A DNA stretch of 64,000 bases from positions 186,001-250,000 of the forward strand of contig ML978140.1 in assembly GCA_010015805.1 (NCBI GenBank), given 5' to 3'. The stretch is from Rhizodiscina lignyota (taxonomy: Eukaryota). A program made the translations under genes and the position numbers. Shown piece after piece: positions 30,407 through 45,386 of the stretch. Each line of letters starts with the position of its first letter. Within the stretch, counting starts at the first letter, position 1. The notes beneath the pieces are model-generated. The model saw nothing but the letters and a program-made list of their open reading frames with translations, did not search any database and was not told where the DNA came from.

Positions 30407-31913
30407 AAAAATTTCAACCCAAAAATGAATACTCAGAAATTAACTTAAATAGAACCCCTAGACTATTTTAAACTTTCAATGCATGTGGGCGCAAAACTTA
30501 ACGTACCGAAGAACGCAGGACATCTTGCAACCCTAATCGACAATTAAAGTTCTGGCTCATATGATACTCTACGCGGATGACGAATAGTTGGCGGTAAGGC
30601 AGGCTGTAACGCTTAAGTGCAGCAGGCTCTCCAGCTTCAAGGTAATCGGGACTATCTCTAAATGCCCAGTGTCGGAGCACGAATGATTAATGAGAGTTGA
30701 TTGAGGGAGGAAGCTCTGAAGGAGAAGTGATCGCTTATATACAGGAGAGCGCTAAGGCGCACTGAGCACCTCCTGACACTTAGTTACATATTCCCGGAGT
30801 GTACTAAACAGTAGCAGGCTATTAAAAAGTTGCACCTTGTGTTATCTACAGAGGCTATATACTGATTCTATTCAGTATTTTAAAAGCTGCAGGCAACCCT
30901 GTTCCCATTCTCTTGACTCCACCCCGTCCCGTACATAGCTGCAAGTTAATAATGTCAGTGATGGACGGATGGATCACATAAGTCGCCGAGCTTCTCTTAA
31001 CGAATCAAGGCTCGAGGGTATCAAAATCGCTGGCGGCAATTGACACCGAAAGAGTGTCGCAAACATAAAGTTTGCTCTTCCGCTCTTAATCGAGAGCATC
31101 ATTGAAAGCTCAGTATAGTATATGCTGGTCGGTGTTTATTAAGACTGCACAGTCACAATAAATTCAATTGCTTTTGGCTAAAGACGTTGTTCGTCCTAAT
31201 CACTTGCCATCCTTAACTTAGGGCGCAACTTTTCTGTCATCCTCTACCTATGGAAGTAAGATACATGTGGGATTTAAATCCCTGCTCTGGCCAATCGACG
31301 CGTCTGTCGCGTCGTCATCTCCGATTGACATCCGACCTCTCATTATAAACGACGCGTCGAAACTCAATTGAGTCTGTTCTCTACCTAGTCTGAACTGCAA
31401 CTACAGCCAAACATGAACACCTCCTCTAGGCCCTTCTCATTACATTCAACTCCTAGGTCGCTCGTGTGGAGAAAACCACATTATGGACTTGTTGAGAGCA
31501 ATCGTCACGCAAAGACGAGAGATGAGATATGAGAGACGAGGTCAACTTCAACCGACACCGAAGAATCTCAAGAGAGCCAGCTCTGTGTTCACGCGCTATC
31601 CTTCACATCACCTCCAAAATTAACCTTGGCAGTCGTATAGAAGTCGTACATAGTAAAGGCTTAGCTAGAAGTCATGACTGTTAAACAAGTTAACGCATAG
31701 AACAGACTCCGAGCAACAGTGCACTGGGCGGCAGCGATCGATCTACTCGCGGCAAAGGCGACTTCGACTCTAACGCACCCTGTGGGAAAGCGCGAACACA
31801 GTCTCTACTTATTCCTGTTCCACTTTCTCGAGCTTCCCCTTCACATCTCTCTCTCTCTCATACGCTTTCCTTCATTCCTACACATCAAACAGTTACCTGC
31901 GCTCCAACTTGAT

Positions 31914-32571
31914 ATGATGCAGAGAGTCAAACGCTTCTTCCGCAGCAGGCGTACGCACACAGATACCGCCTCACCAGCACCTCCAGCCGAGGAGCGACGC
32001 AGCTGCACGGAGAGGGACGCTCAACTCACAGCGCCTGTTCCCATACCGGGAGTCGATGCGACAGGCAAGTATACCTCGGATCAATGATCACCGCCGCTAA
32101 TTGGTGCGTGACTCAACAGTTCCAGCTGGCTACGATGATCTCGACCAGCCAATCTCCGATTTCGAGATTCGCATGACCCCATCGGATCTCATATCGCATA
32201 TCGCCAAGGTTACCGCAAAGGAGACTGCCGACCTGATTACTCGCCAACGGCTTATCGCAGAAGAAGGGGATTTTGCCCGGTTTATGCGTGGCGACCGGTA
32301 TCTGAAGCCGGATGCTGCTTCACTTGATCCACTTGCCTCTCATGTCAATTCTCGTCACGCACCAGAGAGAAGCTCGACGCAATACGGGTCATGGCCTGGA
32401 GACAAATTCACCGACAAGAATAGTCCGAGCTTGAAGAGTAGACGTTCAACAGATCGCGGCCGACACGCCATCGCGGGGGGCGGCGCCACAACTCGGCCAA
32501 ACGGGTCCAAGGCAAGCTCCACCAGGTCCAGAGCAAGCAGTATGCATGTGAGGGAACACGCTGAGTTTTGA
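31914..32571 (+). CDS. Hypothetical low-complexity protein, 2 exons (GC-AG intron)
   Basis: MMQRVKRFFRSRR... joins ORF 32101-32571 in frame only through intron 32065-32119 (GCAAGT...GCTAAT...CAG). Pyrimidine-rich 5' leader. Confidence 0.5.
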
Positions 32572-33925
32572 TGCGGAGACCTTAATTGCGGATGACTCCT
32601 TGTCACTTCAAGCACACCTTTGTCTTCATAGTCTTCGTGTTAGAACTTAGCACTACGAGAAGTATCTAACATTTTCCAATCTTCAAATCGTATCCTAACG
32701 TGAGTGTTTCATGAGCAGGTGGGAATCAAGTAGTCAAGGAAGACAAAACCGTGCTTCAACTCTTACGTCAGTAGTTGATGCCGTACCGCGGCCATGAATT
32801 CCCTACCGCTAATCCCCCACAGATGCTATCATGCTACAAATTGTCATTAATTCTTCGAGGCTTCTCCCTTCTTTCATCTGCAACGGCGTCCCTTCCCTGT
32901 CCCGCGCGTGTCTCTTTCCCTCCCATTTCACCCGCATAAACGGTCGCTTTCTCACCCAGTTAGTACAATCTTTCCGTCCCCTTGGCTTTCCCCATCGCTG
33001 TTTCGTTGTTGCCGTAGTGTTCAGCAGAGGTCTGATAAAGGTCAATCACACTCTAGGAGATCATGAGGCATATCCTTGGTCTACACACTCTTGCTCTCTG
33101 CGGTAGCGATATATTACAGGAGTGCACGCTACGTTCGATGGCTGTCTCTTCATGCTCTTGGGAGCGCTAGAAGAAGACTATAGACTTCGTCGCTGAGCCT
33201 CCTATTCTATTCGAATACGAACTTGGAGAACAGTTTGGCGGGGGGCTGTCCTTTACTCAAGCTCCATGCTGATAATGTATCCATCAATGGCCAAGACGAA
33301 CAAGGCTGTGAAAATGGATGGCATTCATATCTCCAATACTGAAGGCATGCCGTAGGACCGGCGTGACGCGGATGCTCCCGCTTCGAATGTGGCTATTCCA
33401 CCGGGACAGTTGACCATGTCGATATCTACGATCATTGTCAACAGTCACAACTATCACCCCGAGCACGATACCAGAAGACTTCAAAACGCCCGAAAACGTC
33501 GAGAAATGGTCAATTCGCGCACCTGCAACGTGGAACGATCGAGACATACAACCTGAGATCGTGATCTCATCCCACGGCTTTGACACAAGAAATTAGGTAA
33601 AAGCGCCGTGATATCCGACCTCCTATTATTGGTTAATGAGAGCTAAGTCACAGACAGAATCGTTATTTCGTTCTTGGCCTTGAACCTTCAGAAACGCCTG
33701 CAAACAAAACCGGGATCGAAGACATTCTGCCAGGATACCTATTGGACCACGTTTCCATTCCCACAGGCCTCACATGGCCGAGATCCCCCTCGTCTCGAGG
33801 GCGCTCCCGAGATTGTTTCTTGCCGTTTTACCTGGGTGGATCCGTGGCGGAACAAGCCATTGAAATGACTGAAATGACTGGCGTATTGTAAGTTTCACAA
33901 CAAATGGTAATTTACCCCAAGGATT

Positions 33926-35775
33926 TCATACCCTCAATTTGACAAAGACCGTCTTCCACCTTCTATGATGCCTAGCTGCACTCCGACCTTTTTCTTCGAA
34001 ATCTTTGACGGCAGACACGGAATCCTTGGCCACAGTCGGGCTTCCGAAGACGGTACTTCCATCAAAGGTCGAAGCACGCGGCGAAAGAGCATATTTGGTG
34101 TTCAGTGTCTCGTCTGGAAGACCATTTGGCGTATTCATGGTCTCTTGGCGCTGGCCTCCTGGTAATACTAGCGCCGGTATCATACTCTCGTTGGCGTTAC
34201 GTGGAACGTCTATATTGAGCCCGCCATTAAGCTGCTCGGGATTTGCCATATTTACCACCATGTTCTCTCCTTTGGGCTCTGACAAAGGCTTCTGCTTTTC
34301 ATTCTGGCCTAAGTATTCGTTCGATGACTCCTGCAAATGCTCGATTGGACGCTCGCCCTCATCCTTATCTAAGGTTTCAGCGTTCAAGTGACCGATGCTC
34401 TTCGGTGGTGATTCGATCGCTAGTGGGATAGTGATCGATGGGAAAAACTCTCGCATAATGTGCTGGTCTTTGGGCGACAGTTTCTGCAAGACACCCTGGA
34501 CCTTCTTGACCTGTTCGCTCGAAAACGCGTTTGATTCCGATTCTTGGATGCCGCGGTCTCCTGGAAAAAGAGTGGGTGCCAGGGAGAATGTTTCGGAACT
34601 GAGTGAGGGCGCAGACGACATTGCCATTTCATTCTGATATGGCATTAAATGCATGCCGTTCCGGTTTCTCCTTTGGTTGGCCCGCCGGTTTCTACGGAAG
34701 CCATCTTCCATATCCGCTCTTTCGTCTCTCTCGTGCCTTCGCTGCTCCTCCCTTTCGGCACACGAAAGATCAGCCATTGCAACCGAGAGTGGTTCATCCA
34801 CGTAATGTTTTGGCTCTGTAGGAGTTTGGAGAATCAGAATCTTGTACTCGAACATCAACTCTCGGCCAAGCAGGAGATCGAAACAGTCCAGGCCCCTCTC
34901 AACGAGATAGCATCGGATTGGAAGCCTTGGCGACTTATTGCTGAAAGTCCAGTTAAGCGTGATTTCCTCTTTTGAAACGATGGAGCCACCTCCAAGGCCG
35001 GCAATGAGTCTTGGAGACGCCAAAGGAGATACCAAGTACATGAGTCCGGCCTTTTCGACGAAATGTTTCGAAATGAATTCAACATCAGATCCAGAATCGA
35101 ATAGAGTGAATACCAAGTGCCCTCGAGGAATGGATGGGTCTGGCGCCGCAACCATTGTTTGGCGAGCATAAGGAGAGTTTTCCTTTGCCCATCGTCCGGC
35201 CGATGTGCCCGGAGCACTTTGGCTCGTTTCACTTCTGTGATTACTTAGCTCGGTGCCTTAATTAATTCGAACCTTTAACTTACCTTACGGAGCCTTGTTC
35301 GTTATGAAAAGCTACACTGCAGCAGGGTTAGAGTTGTGTAGTAATAAGTCGATTCATTGCAGTCTTACTTGGCGAGAAGCTGATTCAAGGAGAGCAGCCC
35401 TTCTTGAGAGGACGACTGGAGACCGCGGCGTCTTTGTGGCTGTGATCGACTTCGGACACCCAACTGTCCCCCTTTGGATGTTGGAAAGGCACAATCCAAA
35501 GCGTACTGATGGGTAGAATCTCGAGACCCTGATAGGCTGCTGGATACGAGAGGCGAATCTATCAACCCAGCTTGCTGAAGAGGGCTGATAAGAGCAAGGA
35601 TATCCCCAAGAGAACCTTCCTGCCTTTCAGTAATTGATAATATGCTGCTCGAAGCCATTGTTCCAAAGCCAAAAGCGGTACGAGTACCAACTAAGGTCTC
35701 CAAGTTGACCACAGTCCAGCTTAGGACGCAAGTCTCAAGGCCCAAGGTGGAGACGGGGCCGATACATATAGCCAT
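33926..35775 (-). CDS. Retropepsin-like (clan AA, single-lobe) aspartic protease domain protein, at least 3 exons; 5' end uncertain
   Basis: HLVFTLFDSGSDVEFISKHFV (D-S-G catalytic motif), flap IAGLGGG, CFDLLLGRE (hhG-R motif), then a charged helix and disordered tail. Canonical introns 35317-35368 and 35235-35283 around a 33-nt exon join ORF 35365-35775 in frame to ORF 33926-35155. Confidence 0.75.
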
Positions 35776-36861
35776 TCAGGAATTCTCACCGGTCTAGCCA
35801 AGCTCCTTGAGCCTCCTCATTGAAGAGGCCAATCCTACGGCTCACTACAGTGGGTGCTGCAAGTCGGCAGTCGTGTGGAATAAGGCTAATGCCAGACTAT
35901 TCCGAGGAGACTGTTAGTTTTCACAGAATTGGGAAGTTTTGCCTGATCACGTTTACCGCATGATTTCAAGTATTGAAACGATTCTGATCAAAACCGCCAT
36001 CACATTACACAACACCTTGAACACCTTGACCCATGGGTCATGGAGCGACATCAGAAGCTAACCACGCAACATTTCCTTTTTAGAAGTATCAGGGTCTGGT
36101 AAATTCCATTAAGCCTAAATCATCTAGAAGTGAATGCATAGCGAGGATTTCAGCATTTCCATCCAATTCGATACCATCATAGTTTGTCTTGCTCCGATGG
36201 TTACCCTTAGCTCTAAGGCTTTCTCCAAACTTCATTCAGATATTGACATCCGTAAACTCTTCAAACTGTTCAAGAGCCAAAATGCCCACCTCCTCAGCCA
36301 GATGGCTGAAAGCCGATGCAAAATCAGCTCTTTTATGCTGACCCCTTTTCAGTATACACCTTGAGGCGGTCCCGTGACTTATATATTTCATTAAATTATT
36401 TTGTTACTTCCTAAGAAGACAGAACTTATCGAAAACTATTCAGATGACTGAGTTGTAACATTCGAACCATTTCCGGATGAGCTGACCGGTACTTCCACAA
36501 CAGGAGGTGGAGTACATATGCAACCACACCAAAACGTGAAGTCTTGCAGCTCGGTTGTGAATGATATCCGCCTTGAGATTTGAGATGTTCTAAGTAGGCT
36601 TCTTATTTGTTCTCGCTTACCCTAGCGTTCAGCTTGATCCAAGGATTGAGGTTGCAAGGCTGCGAGGCTGCGATAGCAGTGGCACGGTAGTGGTACTACA
36701 CTGAGATCCCAAGCTTCAGAGCGATTGAACAAGCTCTTCTCAATAAGTCAGATAATATCCCGCACCATCTATCTCTTCAACTTCATCAAAAGTCGCCATT
36801 CCCCCAATTAGCATCTCAAACTTCACAATCACAGAGCGCACGATCAGGCTCAATCTGGAGG

Positions 36862-38362
36862 ATGAGTAACAGGAACTCAGCATTCGAGGAGCTGGAGGCC
36901 CTCTCAGAAGAGGGATTTGCAAAATTGGCATGGATTATGTCAAGAAGCGATACTAGAAACTTAGCAATCTTCAGGAAGTTTGGTGAACTGAACATGTTTA
37001 ACCTGTTACGTCTCCAGAGCGAGCTAATGGAGCTTCACGAAGAATTCCGGTTCTTATATAAACAGGACGAATTTGAAAAATGCCGATTCGACTTCAAAGA
37101 GCTGCGCAAGTCTGATTCTGCGCAGACGAAGCGAAGAGCTTCCAATGGGGCAGGTGCGCTGAAAGGCCCATCTGCTCCCAATGACATTGGTTTGTCTCCT
37201 GGCCTCTATCCAACTGGACAGTTCAATCCTCGAGAGGCACTCGCTCCAAACAGGACAAATTATTCACACGGGCCATTTATTCATTCCGGATCATCGGCTA
37301 GTGGATCGAATACTCTAAAAGGATCAAGCCTCCTCGATTCGCCAGCCTTCCCCAGTGAGCCATACTCGCCCACTGCTTCATACCTTCCGTTTGTACCGGA
37401 TCCGTCCAATGCGGCAGTTAGTCAAAACGAAGAAGCCTCTGATTCTGAAGACGACTATTGCAACTCGGAAGATGGAAGCTCGTACAACCCAAATGATCTC
37501 CAACGGCTATCCAAAAGAATCCAGGGAAAGCTCAGAGAATACAGTAAGTGTTTATCCCCCTATCGCCAACACCAGCTAACCCTTGAAACCAGATGAAGCG
37601 CTCTGGCAGGTCTCCCGGCTCGAGAGTATCGAGACCCCACACCTGGGAAGTCTCGAATGTCTGGAAAACTGGCTTTATCAGCACAGAACAGAAGTTGAAA
37701 GAAAGAAGAATCAAAAGTTTCTCGTCAAGGCTGACGAATTCATGTACCATGAGAGCATAAAGCTGAATGACTTCATTGCGGTCCGCGCTCCGCGGACAGA
37801 TAGGGATCCATTCCAGGAGACTCTGAGTCCAAAGATTGTAAGGATCTTAATATTCTTCCGAAATATCTTTGAACACAGGTTTCGGACCAAGGTAAATGCA
37901 GCCTGCAGGCAATCCAGGTTGACTTCAAACGCTAACCTTGAGAGAGCCTTCCAAGTCTAAAGAAGACGTCGAAGCTACGAATAGTAACTCACAAGATGCA
38001 AATGCGAAGGATAAAAAAACTCCGGAAAAGGCCGAACTCGACTACCTCCGCATCCACAAGCTGGCACGGCGAGCTTCTAAGTTCAGCGCATTTTTCATCG
38101 CCATCACTGCGGCCCTGTTTCCCGTCCTCTCCATGGTTGCACTCTATTTCATAAACCGTACAATCATTAGATTGTGGGCCCTCATAGGCCTCACTTTGGC
38201 CTTCGCCCTTGCCATAAAGCTTTTCACGGCGGCAAGGAGTTCTGACATATTTGCAATAGCTGCTGGGTAAGTACCCGCCTTTCCCCTCGAGGTCTTGCTA
38301 ACATGAACTTTAGATTTGTGGCGGTCGAAGCGATTTTCATTGGAAGCCCTGGGAAGTCATAA
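36862..38362 (+). CDS. DUF6594-family fungal membrane protein, 4 exons
   Basis: N-terminal GFAKLAWIMS..LAIFRKFGELNMFNLLRLQSELMEL; spliced KLREY|NEALWQVSRLESIETP..LENWL; C-terminal hydrophobic helices FFIAITAALFPVLSMVALYFI..LWALIGLTLAFALAIKLFT..DIFAIAAG|FVAVEAIFIGS. This is the typical DUF6594 pattern. Confidence 0.8.
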
Positions 38363-39606: not shown

Positions 39607-40629
39607 ATGTCAGATCTAAAGCAAGACTCAAAGTACGCCATCCACGAAGCCGCTCGCGAAGGCAAAAGTGAGCATATCTCCTCTCCCTCAACTTCCCATA
39701 TTTTCTAACAATCTTTCCACCCAGCCAGCATAGTCGAAAGTCTTCTGAACGTACGTCTCTCCTCGGGCGCATCTCCTCCTGTTCCACCAGACTCCTAATT
39801 CCCATCTCCAGGCAAATCCACGCCTCGCAAACCGCCGTGATGAAGACGAGCGCCTGCCACTCCACTGGGCCGTGTCCTACAACCGCCTCCCGATCGTACA
39901 GCTCCTCGTGCAGACCAAAGACTTCCATGTTGACGCACCAGACGGCATGGGCTGGACGCCGCTCATGATGGCGGCGAGTCTGAAGGACGCGGATGACGTG
40001 GTGGATTTATTGTTAAGCAGGGACGCGGATGTGAATATAAAAAGTGAGCGGTTCCCTTAGAATTCCTGTAGACAGGAACTCGAGGAAAGACCCAAAGCAT
40101 GGATGGGATAAGACGATAGCTGACAGCAATACGGATGTACAGACAACGCCGGCCAGACTGCGCTGCACTTCACAGCCTCCAAGGCGAACCTCGACACTGC
40201 CCGAAAACTCATCGCTCACAAAGCCACGGCGCGCCAGAAAGACCGCCGGGGCCAACTACCACTGCATCGTGCGGCAGCGGTTGGATCCGTACCCATGATC
40301 AAGCTGCTGCTGGACAACAAGAGCCCGCTGAATGCCACTGATGTCGACGGCATGACTGCTCTGCACCACGCAATATCAGAAGGACATGGCGATGCGGCAG
40401 TGGCACTGCTCAAGGCGGGCGCGGAGAGCGACAAGCAGAGCATGGATGGGATGCTTGCGATCGAGCTGGCGCCGGATGCAAAGGTCTGCCAGCTCTCCTT
40501 GATTAATTTGAGGTAGTTTGCAAGTTTGACTTGAATTGTGTTGCTAATACCTATGCATTTTAGATTCGAAGTTTCATTCTCCAAAACGCGGAGCTCGAGG
40601 GTATCGATGTGGCGATGCCAGAATCATGA
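39607..40629 (+). CDS. NAS6: Ankyrin-repeat proteasome assembly chaperone Nas6 (gankyrin/PSMD10), 5 exons
   Basis: KYAIHEAAREGK, DEDERLPLHWAVS, GWTPLMMAAS, GQTALHFTASK, GQLPLHRAAAVGS, GMTALHHAISEGH, APDAK|IRSFILQNAELEGI. Confidence 0.88.
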
Positions 40630-40841
40630 GAAAATGAAAATGGCTCGAAAGTCGCCCCATGATAACCGCTAGCAATGCCCTTGTCCATCGAAAGCCAAAG
40701 ATACCCTACCCGCCAAATAAGAACCCCGAATCATACGACGAAGATGTAAAATGTCTAGCAGACTGCTCTGAAGGCATGTATGCATGCATATCAAGAAAAG
40801 AATTTAAAGAGCATGGCATGGCCGGATGAAGAAGAGCGGGA

Positions 40842-43743
40842 TCACTTCTGCGCCCTCTCCTCCGCCATCTGCCTAATAATCCCCTTCAAATCGCTCACAT
40901 CTTGCTTTAACTCCTCACACTCCTCCTGCCTCTCCCCCAGCATCTCTAGCGCCTTCTCCCACCGGTCCTTCAACTCCCCAAGCTCCTTCTCCGTGCCCTT
41001 CAGCCTGTTATCCAGGCCCCTACTCTTCTCCTCATCGGCCTCGCGCATGAGCTTCACAACCTCCGATCGCGCCTCATCCCGCTGCCCCGAAAGCCGCGAC
41101 ATCTCCTCCTTGAGCGATGCCTTCTCGGACTCAAGGCGCCGCACGGCGGCGGACATGCGCTCGACGAGCTGCACACTCGGACCGGCGTTGACTGTCGACA
41201 CGCTCATGAGGTCGGCGACGGGTGTGCCAACGCCCGCGTTGCTGCCTCTATGCTGCGGGCTTGATGTGCCTGTGGGCGGCATTTCGGATCCTAGGTCGTC
41301 GTCTGCAATAGCATCGATGCTTGGTGCCTGTAGATTCGAAGGGGAGAAGAAGCTTGAGCCATTCATCTGATGTAGGCTTATGGCACTCAGTTGCCGCGGT
41401 GACAAAATACCTGGGCTCTGGAGGTTTGACGCGGAGAGCGAGCTGGCAGAGAAAGGATGGGCGGAAGTGCGGCGCGATACAGGACGTTCGGCACCTGCCG
41501 TCGACGTGTTGACGTTCAAGCCGATATGGCTAGAATCCGGACCAGAAGACAGAGCGCGACCGCTTGGGCTGCGACGCGCATGGAGGTTGTTCAGCATGTG
41601 CAGATCTTGACCGGATGATTTACGCTGTGTGACGGAGATGGTAGGGGAGTCTGTACGGTAGCCAGGCGGCTCCATGGGCGTCTGAGCCGATGAGAACTCC
41701 AAGCGCCACTTCGTCTTCTCTTCCTCGAGCCTCTGCTGAAACTCTGCCTCCCAAACCTTCTTGTCGCTCTCGAACTGTTCACGCGCCGTGTTGAGAGTAG
41801 TCTCGGTCTGCGAAAGCCGCAGCTGAAATTTTGTGAGCTGCGCCGTCTGTTCCGCCACATCTTGTTCGAGCGTTCGCGTCCGCTCCTGCGCGCTTTCCAG
41901 TTCCTCTTCTAATCGTCGTGATTTGGAGTTGACCTCGCGGGCCTTCTTGCGCACGTCAGCCTCCCGCTTGCTGATGTCGTCGCGTTCCTTTTCGAGAGCT
42001 GCGACGCGAGCATTGAGTGTGCCTTCGATGCCCTGCCAATTCTCGCTCGCAAGGGCGTATTGTGTCTGCAGGGTCTCAATTTGGCGGAGGAGCTTCGCTT
42101 GTGAGTCGCCTGTGGCGCCGGAGGAGGCCTCTTCGGTGCGGGAGCGGAGGAGTTCCAGCTTGGTCTCTAGATTCTGCATGACTAAAAGTTAGAATAGATA
42201 TTCGAACCACTTGTGTATTACGGCGCCCCAAATGATAACATAACGTACCGTGACTTCACTTCTCAACTCAATCTCCACCATCTTCGCCCGCTCTTCTTTC
42301 CTAATGGCATCTGCTTTCGCATCTTTCACCTCGGTCTTGGCCCTGTCCTCGGCAAGCTTCTTTTCTATTCTCAGGTTCTCCAGCTCCTCTCTCAGATCAG
42401 CAACGGTCCGCTTTTCTTGCTCCAACTGTTCCTCCTTCGCCTTCTTCTCAGCATCCTCCGCGCGCCCTATCGCATCCGCAAGCTGTCGTCTCAGATCCCT
42501 AATCAGCTCTAGACTCTGCTCCTTCTCTCTCTTCAGCTCATCCACATCCTTCTCAATACGGCTTACAATCCTAATCTTCTCCTCTGCCTCCTTAATCCTC
42601 GCCTCAGCCTTCCTCCTCCCCTCCTTCTCCTCATTATATCCTTTCTCCAACCTCTCCAACCTCCTCTTCACCTCCGCCTCGCCCTTCTCCCGTGCCGCGT
42701 TCTGCGTCCGCACCTTCTTCAGCGTCTCGCTGAATTGGAACGCCTCTTTGCTCCGCGCCTCAGCCTCGCGCATCAGATCCACGATGCTCTGGTCCTTTTC
42801 TGCGAGCTTCTTCTCTAGACTGCCGGGCTCGGCATCCTCTTTCGCCTGCTTCGCCGCCTCTTCGGCATATTTCGCTAGTGCTTTGAGCTTTGCCTGTAGT
42901 GCGTCTATTCGCTCGAGGTGCGTGAGCATTTCCTCGCGGCGCTGCTTGTCTTCATCTTCACGTTCTTTTGTTATGCGTTCGAGTTCGGCTTCGAGAGTGG
43001 AGGGGGTGCGGCGGAGGGGTGTCGGCGCAGGAGGTGGTTCTGGTTCGGCAGCGGTGGAGGATTGGGATATGGCTTCGAGAGAGGGGCGGGAGGGTAAGGA
43101 GTCTTGTGAGGGTCGTGGTGATGCGGCTTCTGGTAGTTCTAATGTAGGTATGCTGGGGGCTGCTGGAGTTTCTTCGCTGGGTTGCGCTTGGCCCGTCAAA
43201 GGTTCGGCCTGAGTATCAGGCGTGTCCAGTGATTGAGTGTCCTTTTCGCGTTCTTGCTGCTCAGCTGGCGCCTCAGATATTGATATCGCATCCGATGTTT
43301 TCGAATCAATACTCATTCGCGGCGCAGCAGTTGGCTTCAGCGTTGGGCTCTGGCCTGGCGTTCCCTTCTCCGACCCTGGTGGTCTACTGCCAGCTCTTGA
43401 TCCTTCAGCGCCCTTATTCACAGCCTTTGCCAATCGCTCTTGCAGTCTGCCATTTGTCCGGCTTCGTGATGATGCTCGAGAATCTACGCTTCCAGTATTA
43501 GACGCTATACCTTGGCGTGCTTGATTACGCTCCTGAATACATACCGTCATCTCCCTTGTTCTGCGGTTCTGTTGCCTTCAATTTAGCATCTAACTTTGTC
43601 GCGGCCAGTGCCCTGGAGCGTGCTCTCGACTGATCCTCTTCAGAGAGGATGTTGTCGAGTCGCGACTCCAGGCCAGCGACTGCACCGGATAGAAACGAGC
43701 CCCATCCTCCAGCAGGCTTGTTCGACTTCTGCGGTCCGCTCAT
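40842..43743 (-). CDS. SGM1: Golgin Sgm1 / TMF1 (TATA element modulatory factor) homologue, 3 exons
   Basis: N-terminal GWGSFLSGAVAGLESRLDNIL, long coiled coils, KLLRQIETLQTQYALASENWQGIE, C-terminal GPSVQLVERMSAAVRRLESE and ALEMLGERQEECEELKQDVSDLK. Confidence 0.88.
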
Positions 43744-44243
43744 CGTTGCGGCACGGGGCGCCTCGCAAGTCCAATGGCTAGGAAACTATCTCACACGTTG
43801 TCGTCGGTGGAGGTATAAGGAGCCGCGTGGCATGGCTGCAGATGGAATCCTACTTTTCGACTGGAATGTCAGTCTTATGACATTGTTTCGGCGGTGGGTA
43901 CCAGCATGAACGGTTCGTCAACGTTCCGAGGAAACAATCGAGGGATCTCAGCAGGGTGCGGAATATCCAAGCTGCGGGGAGGCACTTCTTCCAGAAGTTG
44001 ATTGAAACTTTTGGCAACGTTTCGATTGCGTGTATATCTGCGGAGCAAGCAAGGATGGTAGGATGGGGTCTAGTTCCCTGTGTGCCTCACGCCGCGTCTA
44101 GTGAATGACACGATTGACACCTGGTGGCTGCCGGCTTGGCACGCCGCCCCGAATATCCTGATCTTGAGGGATTGGACGACCGCTCCTTGAATGCAGAATA
44201 CAACATTCTCTGTGAATTGATTCTAAGAGAGCTGAAATCCAAG

Positions 44244-45386
44244 ATGGCTGTCGCGGTAAGCACTATCTTCCATTCCACTCAGGTCTCGTCACGAGGCGAA
44301 TCAATATCTGCCAGTTGGTTGATAAAGCGGTTCAGCCTCAAATTTCGGGAAGACCAGGATTCTCAAAATAGTCATGAGAGATTCAATCAATTTCCGAAAC
44401 ACGACCAGAATGGTCCTTTTTCAATTACTACCATCTAACAGGCCTTTTACCAAAAGAGCTGGTAGCTAACCATGCCTTTCCCATACAGGCCGTAGGGCAG
44501 ATATGCTCTACCGGGAACATGCTCCACAACCTCAAGCAATGCCGAACACTTGTCCAAAAGGCTGCAGCCAAAGGCGCCAAGGTCAGTTCATTCCTGCTCT
44601 CCAAACTTCGTACGTAGCGCCAACATCTCTCCTCAGTAGGCTCTCTTCCTCCCAGAAGCGTCTGACTACATAGCTTCTTCTCCGGCGGAAACCGTGTCTT
44701 TGGTCAAGTCTGTCCAGGAGTCCGAATTCGTGCGTGGCCTCCAAGAAGAGGCTCGATCCAAATCAATCGCCATCAATGTCGGCGTGCATGAGCCGGCGGA
44801 GGGCGGGAAGAAGGTGAAGAACACATTGCTTTGGATCGATGAGAAAGGTGAAATCGTGCAGCGGTATCAGAAGTTACATCTCTTCGACGTCGAACTCCCA
44901 GGAGGGCCAGTTATCAGGGAAAGCGACAGTGTCGAAAAAGGATCGAGCATATTGCCACCTTTTGACTCGGCCCTGGGCAGGATTGGCATGACGATATGCT
45001 TCGACTTGCGCTTCCCGGAAATTTCATTGGCCCTGAAGAGGCAGAATGCCCAGGTAATAACCTATCCCTCAGCATTTACCGTCCCGACTGGTAAGGCGCA
45101 TTGGGCTCCTCTGCTGCGCGCTCGAGCGATTGAAACACAGGCATATGTAATCGCTGCCGCCCAAGTCGGGTTTCATAATGTGAAGCGTCGAAGTTATGGC
45201 CATAGCGTGATCATTAGTCCATGGGGAGAGATGCTTGCGGAGCTTGGATATGAGGAGTTGAAACGAGATGGCAATGGCGATCCGATCCCGGAAATAGCGT
45301 TTGCCGACATTGATCTAAAAGAGGTTGAGAGAATAAGGAAAGAGATGCCGCTTCTGAGGAGGACGGACATGTATCCTGAAGTGTGA
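44244..45386 (+). CDS. Carbon-nitrogen hydrolase, Nit family (deaminated-glutathione amidase-like), 3 exons
   Basis: Spliced MAVA|AVGQICST..GAK|ALFLPEASDY; catalytic triad E / YQKLHLFD / ICFDLRFPE; YPSAFTVPTG, LLRARAIETQ, SYGHS. Confidence 0.92.

Follow-up and report, generated by a model that had tools for sequence, protein, structure and literature searches.

Among cellular retropepsins, DDI2 acts on the membrane-tethered NRF1. A second described system is the fungal gasdermin cluster: in the available part of one survey, a protease gene lies at most 10 kb from 80% of fungal gasdermins, and the protease slot is filled by S8 in 63% and by CHAT in 19% of 1,884 gasdermins (PMC8851545). Here, we describe a locus of Rhizodiscina lignyota in which a gene for a retropepsin-like protease and a gene for a DUF6594 (PF20237) protein lie head-to-head. 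The locus is in a 64,000-nucleotide stretch (the window; ML978140.1, positions 186,001 to 250,000) of contig C20 in a 33.4-Mb genome. A sequence-only reading had proposed an undescribed module in which the protease processes or regulates the DUF6594 protein. The pair is indeed a real, old and recurrent two-gene module, without description in the literature searched, and that part of the proposal stands on the recurrence of the linkage. We favor protease control of DUF6594 as the explanation, with a probability of roughly 0.6.

Recurrence of the linkage beyond chance had been set beforehand as a test. The 36 DUF6594 matches in the genome were grouped as at least 21 loci. For the 20 loci other than that of the window, a surrounding segment of 9.9 kb was compared with 60 stretches of the same length drawn at random from 12 contigs, using a retropepsin profile built on the window domain together with 23 public relatives. 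A retropepsin frame was found at 7 of the 20 loci and in none of the 60 random stretches (Fisher p = 2.4e-5; the common ancestry of the eight linked loci means that p-values overstate independence), and the same seven loci were recovered with the window domain left out of the profile. With the window included, 8/21 DUF6594 loci are paired with a retropepsin. Seven of these pairs are head-to-head, the exception being L038 with a tandem orientation, and the DUF6594 start lies about 0.8-2.2 kb from the catalytic motif. At L037, the two genes carry consecutive public locus tags. Searches of the whole genome with outside proteins returned DUF6594-adjacent copies only (4/4, 3/3 and 1/1), as did a search with the window domain, and Pfam family searches added only two unlinked retropepsin genes, Ddi1 (L118) and a retropepsin fusion (L119). 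These totals, eight linked and at least two unlinked, are those found by searches of limited sensitivity. The fusion gene is an 811-residue frame (L119:4688-7120, contig C6) with an N-terminal retropepsin domain and no DUF6594 within 9.9 kb; the stretch after the domain has no Pfam match, and we take it to resemble an alpha/beta-hydrolase.

Could the adjacency be a product of chance, or the protease a retrotransposon relic? The domain does score nearest to retroviral and Ty3 protease families (Pfam, ESM Atlas), and this genome holds about 21 copies of DUF6594. Against such an origin stand the 60 random stretches devoid of retropepsin, the spliced gene with its intact frame, and a nearest solved fold that is Ddi1. 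Moreover, no match to gag, reverse transcriptase or integrase was found among the selected flanking frames scanned. Chance or a relic is thus a very improbable source of the pair.

The linkage also extends to a second species. A scan of a metagenome collection with the DUF6594 N-terminus gave five loci, four of which (L114-L117) are near-identical assemblies of one species and were counted once; each has a head-to-head retropepsin, with a decayed second copy beyond. The contig of the fifth (L113), at 1,667 bases, is not long enough for linkage to be scored. In one of the four assemblies, a NACHT-like gene with a hydrolase N-terminus (L116:10100-12163) lies directly downstream of DUF6594, and another gene takes that place in the other three. 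With the protease alignment as query, a metagenome scan gave 80 pattern matches, none of which was confirmed. The closest public relatives of the window proteins, P0002 (protease, 59%) and P0033 (DUF6594, 61%), are each recorded on a Joint Genome Institute contig of 15,625 bases, which is probably the same contig. The evidence for linkage across species comes to one locus that was seen and one, in this last fungus, that we infer.

What is the history of the pair? In a DUF6594 tree of 20 sequences and 247 columns (P0033, L050, L051 and L052, with fewer than 75 columns, were dropped), all nine retropepsin-linked DUF6594 sequences fall within one clade of 13, with support of 97. Within this genome, 8/11 in-clade loci are linked versus 0/7 out-of-clade loci. 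Judged from this tree, the retropepsin pairs have one origin and are not independent. The linked proteases, mostly 10-25% identical, are found on different contigs with different neighbors; given the low identity and the different contigs, the linkage must be old. Alternatively, the linkage may be passive: a bidirectional promoter common to both genes, or the joint duplication of an ancestral segment, would maintain it, and the products would not interact. The restriction of all linked loci to one clade, the head-to-head layout (which fits a common promoter) and the weak co-divergence described below would all agree with this explanation. It is nonetheless improbable, considering that the pair persists at such low protease identity while each of the scanned loci has different flanking genes (150/154 and 102/102 frames of at least 125 residues), that the L038 genes are in tandem yet still paired, and that a second protease class takes the same position elsewhere.

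The features of the two window genes are collected in Table 1. The sequence-only reading had described a spliced retropepsin gene with an intact D-S-G site, diverging at about 1.1 kb from a DUF6594 gene with C-terminal transmembrane helices, and this description holds in each part: the protease (minus strand) and DUF6594 (plus strand) starts are 1,086 bases apart. Both introns of the protease gene are GT..AG, and splicing gives an open frame of 582 residues that equals the public hypothetical protein P0001 of R. lignyota (100% identity over the query). The motif LFDSGSD provides a single D-S/T-G after a hydrophobic strand, with Asp193 as the catalytic-type residue. Downstream, DLLLG forms the D-hydrophobic-hydrophobic-hydrophobic-G motif; D94 and G98 of the domain are nearly invariant, and a helix (99-104) comes next in the model. 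The Pfam check suggested with the original proposal succeeded for DUF6594 and fell short for the protease, whose matches to Peptidase_A2B (E 0.058) and RVP_2 (E 0.087) reach 13.4 and 13.1 bits versus cut-offs of 21.2 and 20.3; full-length P0001 has no Pfam match. In ESM Atlas features, the protease domain scores 0.95 to retroviral aspartyl protease clusters. The domain model has a predicted local distance difference test score (pLDDT) of 85.6, and Ddi1 protease domains fill its top ten Foldseek rows (E 9e-5 to 6e-4, template modeling (TM) score about 0.5). Despite the weak Pfam scores, the Atlas features and the modeled fold confirm the product as a retropepsin-class domain.

Beyond this domain are a charged helix and then about 280 low-complexity residues. 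The tail is predicted to be disordered, with two short motifs that recur across the window subfamily, one S/T-T-x-x-G-S-P-like and the other a basic K/R-W-K helix, which to us recalls calmodulin-binding helices. A calmodulin-type pattern occurs near the C-terminal motif in 7/11 relatives, but 6-42% of shuffled tails match somewhere; with so unconvincing a shuffle control, the possible calmodulin connection is a weak lead only.

The DUF6594 gene runs from an ATG at 36862 to a stop at 38362 in four exons and encodes 446-449 residues. Three exons match Pfam DUF6594 at 38, 20 and 45.5 bits (cut-off 30), so that two pass singly, and the C-terminus holds three hydrophobic helices predicted to span the membrane. 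The third intron (donor 37892) has in-frame acceptors at 37946 or 37955, both non-YAG. A DNA contig showed no sequence difference, although the assembly may itself derive from that contig. Since the profile matches of the paralogues are interrupted at the corresponding position, the gene is probably intact.

A model of the paralogue P0038 (pLDDT 77.6, predicted TM score (pTM) 0.49) contains helices only: residues 19-59 and 110-139 form a long hairpin, whose tip loop is flexible, and short helices and the three membrane helices follow. The hairpin-tip insertion is about 130 residues in the window protein versus about 25-35 in most paralogues, and it is also long in the four nearest relatives. 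The sequence-only reading had suggested a Foldseek comparison with pore-formers; no row reached E<=0.001, for a model with a pTM of 0.49 and a list filled by the hairpin. VIA-align gave generic helical hairpins only (residues 22-141; best Z 9.8, root-mean-square deviation 3.0, 76 aligned), matches that are below the noise level of the tool for helical proteins, and the comparison barely reached the membrane part. In the Atlas structure comparison, only a DUF6594 cluster matched above TM 0.5.

Table 1. Features of the window locus and of the caspase-like genes that face DUF6594 elsewhere in the genome.
Feature	Position	Strand	Remarks
Protease exon 1	35369..35775	-	without known domain; N-termini of close relatives P0146/P0147 not similar
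Protease exon 2	35284..35316	-	33 bases; introns 35317-35368 and 35235-35283 on either side
Protease exon 3	33926..35234	-	encodes the retropepsin domain, a charged helix and the long tail of low complexity
Retropepsin (Ddi1-like) domain	34808..35140	-	Pfam, ESM Atlas features, fold model
D193-S-G catalytic-type motif	35090..35098	-	Asp codon 35096-35098; from sequence; Asp invariant in alignments
Basic amphipathic motif, RRWK..V..L type	33932..33970	-	tail end; common to several relatives; weak basis
Possible further intron and short last exon	33770..33931	-	putative; donor 33931, acceptor 33878 or 33869; absent from public model
Upstream region common to both genes	35776..36861		1,086 bases; candidate bidirectional promoter
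DUF6594 exon 1	36862..37543	+	first hairpin helix, long acidic/low-complexity insertion, second helix start
Insertion at helical hairpin tip	37111..37500	+	about 130 residues; candidate cleavage or sensing loop
DUF6594 exon 2	37593..37891	+	Pfam, splicing, paralogue comparison
DUF6594 exon 3	37947..38266 (start perhaps 37956)	+	membrane helices one and two
DUF6594 exon 4	38314..38362	+	third membrane helix end and stop
Caspase-like genes head-to-head with DUF6594	L034:6281-8196 (contig C18), L035:7089-8730 (contig C3)		no Pfam match at E 0.001

The partners of DUF6594 vary at other loci. The Asp is kept in all eight of the linked proteases aligned, and six have the full D-S/T-G. Accessory parts of the other linked proteases include DUF6590 and ubiquitin-like or helical N-terminal domains; one gene (L048:1866-4187) has ubiquitin-like and zinc-finger-like parts. 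Decayed second or partial retropepsin-like frames lie beside DUF6594 at L038:6357-7052, L114:4977-5408 and L042:6606-7040, and may be inactive partners. Outside the clade, at L034 and L035, DUF6594 faces genes with His-Gly and Asp-Cys motifs that we take, from knowledge of the family, to be caspase-type; one caspase-like exon matches Peptidase_C14 at E 0.088 only, and a PDB sequence search with a caspase-like exon matched no caspase. These two loci and the eight with retropepsins bring the protease-linked DUF6594 loci to 10/21. At L041, a patatin-like gene (L041:1530-3619, contig C15) is head-to-head with the DUF6594 gene, and at L036 a 782-residue frame (L036:3127-5472, contig C3), which adjoins the frq clock gene, has DUF6594 as its C-terminal part.

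How might the two products act together? In the reading that we favor, the two genes are inherited as one unit and would be co-expressed. The cytosolic retropepsin would dimerize, as expected from its family, and the variable accessory parts would hold it off or switch it on, a role played here by the disordered tail with its two conserved motifs and elsewhere by the DUF6590, ubiquitin-like or helical domains. Once active, the retropepsin would cut or engage its own DUF6594 partner at the helical hairpin, which would lie in the cytosol, while the three C-terminal membrane helices would anchor that partner. A cut would most plausibly fall in the hairpin-tip loop, and would alter the state of the membrane protein by making it oligomerize, changing its conductance or freeing its cytosolic part. 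The preference for protease control reflects the combination of two protease classes and variable accessory domains beside a constant membrane protein, which matches the logic of fungal gasdermins.

Several results weigh against this mechanism. No cleavage motif common to the DUF6594 hairpin loops was seen, and the loops are very variable in size. The motif glycine is absent in 3/9 linked proteases (DSQS at L039, DTQA at L040 and DTAA in the second species), and decayed extra retropepsin copies are present at L038 and L114. A clear retropepsin is missing from the surrounding 5 kb or so at three of the 11 in-clade loci, although L042 may hold half of one, and the eight linked loci share their ancestry. 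Comparison of the gene trees, a further element of the original proposal, bore out the single clade but revealed weak co-divergence: in a Mantel-type test inside the clade, which was mostly negative, protease and DUF6594 distances are not significantly correlated by rank (Spearman 0.11-0.23, p 0.15-0.35), and the Pearson values of 0.42-0.65 are carried by two close pairs.

Some of these results would suit a functional pair in which DUF6594 is not cleaved, with the retropepsin fold binding as a sensor or adaptor, or with DUF6594 tethering a protease that cuts a third protein. The non-canonical motifs and extra decayed copies, the varied accessory domains, and the one DUF6594 gene whose head-to-head neighbor is for a patatin instead of a protease are all in line with such an arrangement. 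On the other hand, the Asp is conserved in all eight aligned copies and the full motif in six, and the fact that another branch uses a protease of an unrelated class suggests that proteolysis is the common need. Overall, we consider a pair without DUF6594 cleavage rather unlikely, though less so than passive linkage.

What might the output of the module be? Tentatively, the DUF6594 proteins of filamentous fungi could be an undescribed family of membrane executioners or channels gated by proteases, parallel to gasdermins, with one branch switched by retropepsins and another by caspase-like proteases; each pair would have its own sensor domains and serve cell death, defense or a wound response. 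Points for a defense or cell-death output are the gasdermin parallel, the copy number, the fast divergence, and the HET-domain (L037), patatin (L041) and NACHT-like (L116) neighbors, which were counted without a background control. Points against it are the lack of a gasdermin-type structure in the P0038 model and of any sign of polymorphism in the one genome; the four second-species assemblies are near-identical over the pair. The analogy to cell-death and allorecognition loci drawn by the sequence-only reading therefore gains slight support from the cluster logic, and loses ground with an all-helical model bearing three membrane helices.

None of the papers in the literature searched, which included few subscription papers and no supplements, names DUF6594, PF20237 or DUF6590, and older work would use locus names. 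The terms 'aspartic', 'aspartyl' and 'retro' are absent from the available part of a 2025 fungal cell death review (PMC12881547). New here are an enrichment count with controls, the separation of DUF6594 clades according to protease class, and the long insertions that match each other in the subfamily of this pair. The linkage is a first functional handle on DUF6594, a large fungal family, and it brings to light stand-alone retropepsins of fungi, a family mostly missed by Pfam. A single genome also offers built-in controls: eight cognate pairs, two of them with altered catalytic motifs, plus two caspase-linked pairs. Should the cell-death reading prove true, which is doubtful at present, this would be, within the literature searched, the first fungal case of a host retropepsin operating a switch for cell death.

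The surroundings of the pair are mixed. The claim of a tract lacking housekeeping genes is correct for about 30.4-39.6 kb of the window and fails beyond it, where TMF1-like, nitrilase, aldehyde dehydrogenase and K+ transporter genes are found. An ankyrin-repeat gene, which resembles the proteasome chaperone Nas6, begins about 1.2 kb downstream of the DUF6594 gene and is followed by those for the TMF1-like golgin and nitrilase (window 39609-45386), all ordinary neighbors. A small spliced gene with no Pfam match (window 31772-32571) lies between the aldehyde dehydrogenase and protease genes. Elsewhere in the genome, a HET-domain gene (L037:2-1438) adjoins the L037 pair.

How, finally, does the pair compare with the known systems? 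The pore-forming domain of gasdermins is soluble and strand-rich, whereas DUF6594 is predicted to be all-helical with three membrane helices; with helices only, three of them hydrophobic, the P0038 model does not show a gasdermin-type fold. The protease differs as well in being aspartic. Ddi1/DDI2 is the nearest solved fold, a stand-alone cellular retropepsin like P0001, and one paralogue of the window protease has a ubiquitin-like domain. Unlike Ddi1, P0001 has no ubiquitin-like or UBA domain, and DUF6594 has no transcription-factor domain; the true Ddi1 of this fungus, with the ubiquitin-like-protease-UBA architecture, is the gene at L118. The proteases of long terminal repeat retrotransposons (Ty3/gypsy) and retroviruses share the fold and the D-S/T-G motif, and were rejected as an identity for this single-domain protein with its two introns. 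In the available part of the gasdermin survey, the HET-Q2-type clusters (het-Q of Podospora) combine a membrane-directed protein with a protease, in several copies per genome and with more than one protease class (PMC8851545), as does the pair described here. The layout is that of a protease-effector cluster, one that is neither a gasdermin cluster, nor Ddi1, nor a transposon protease.
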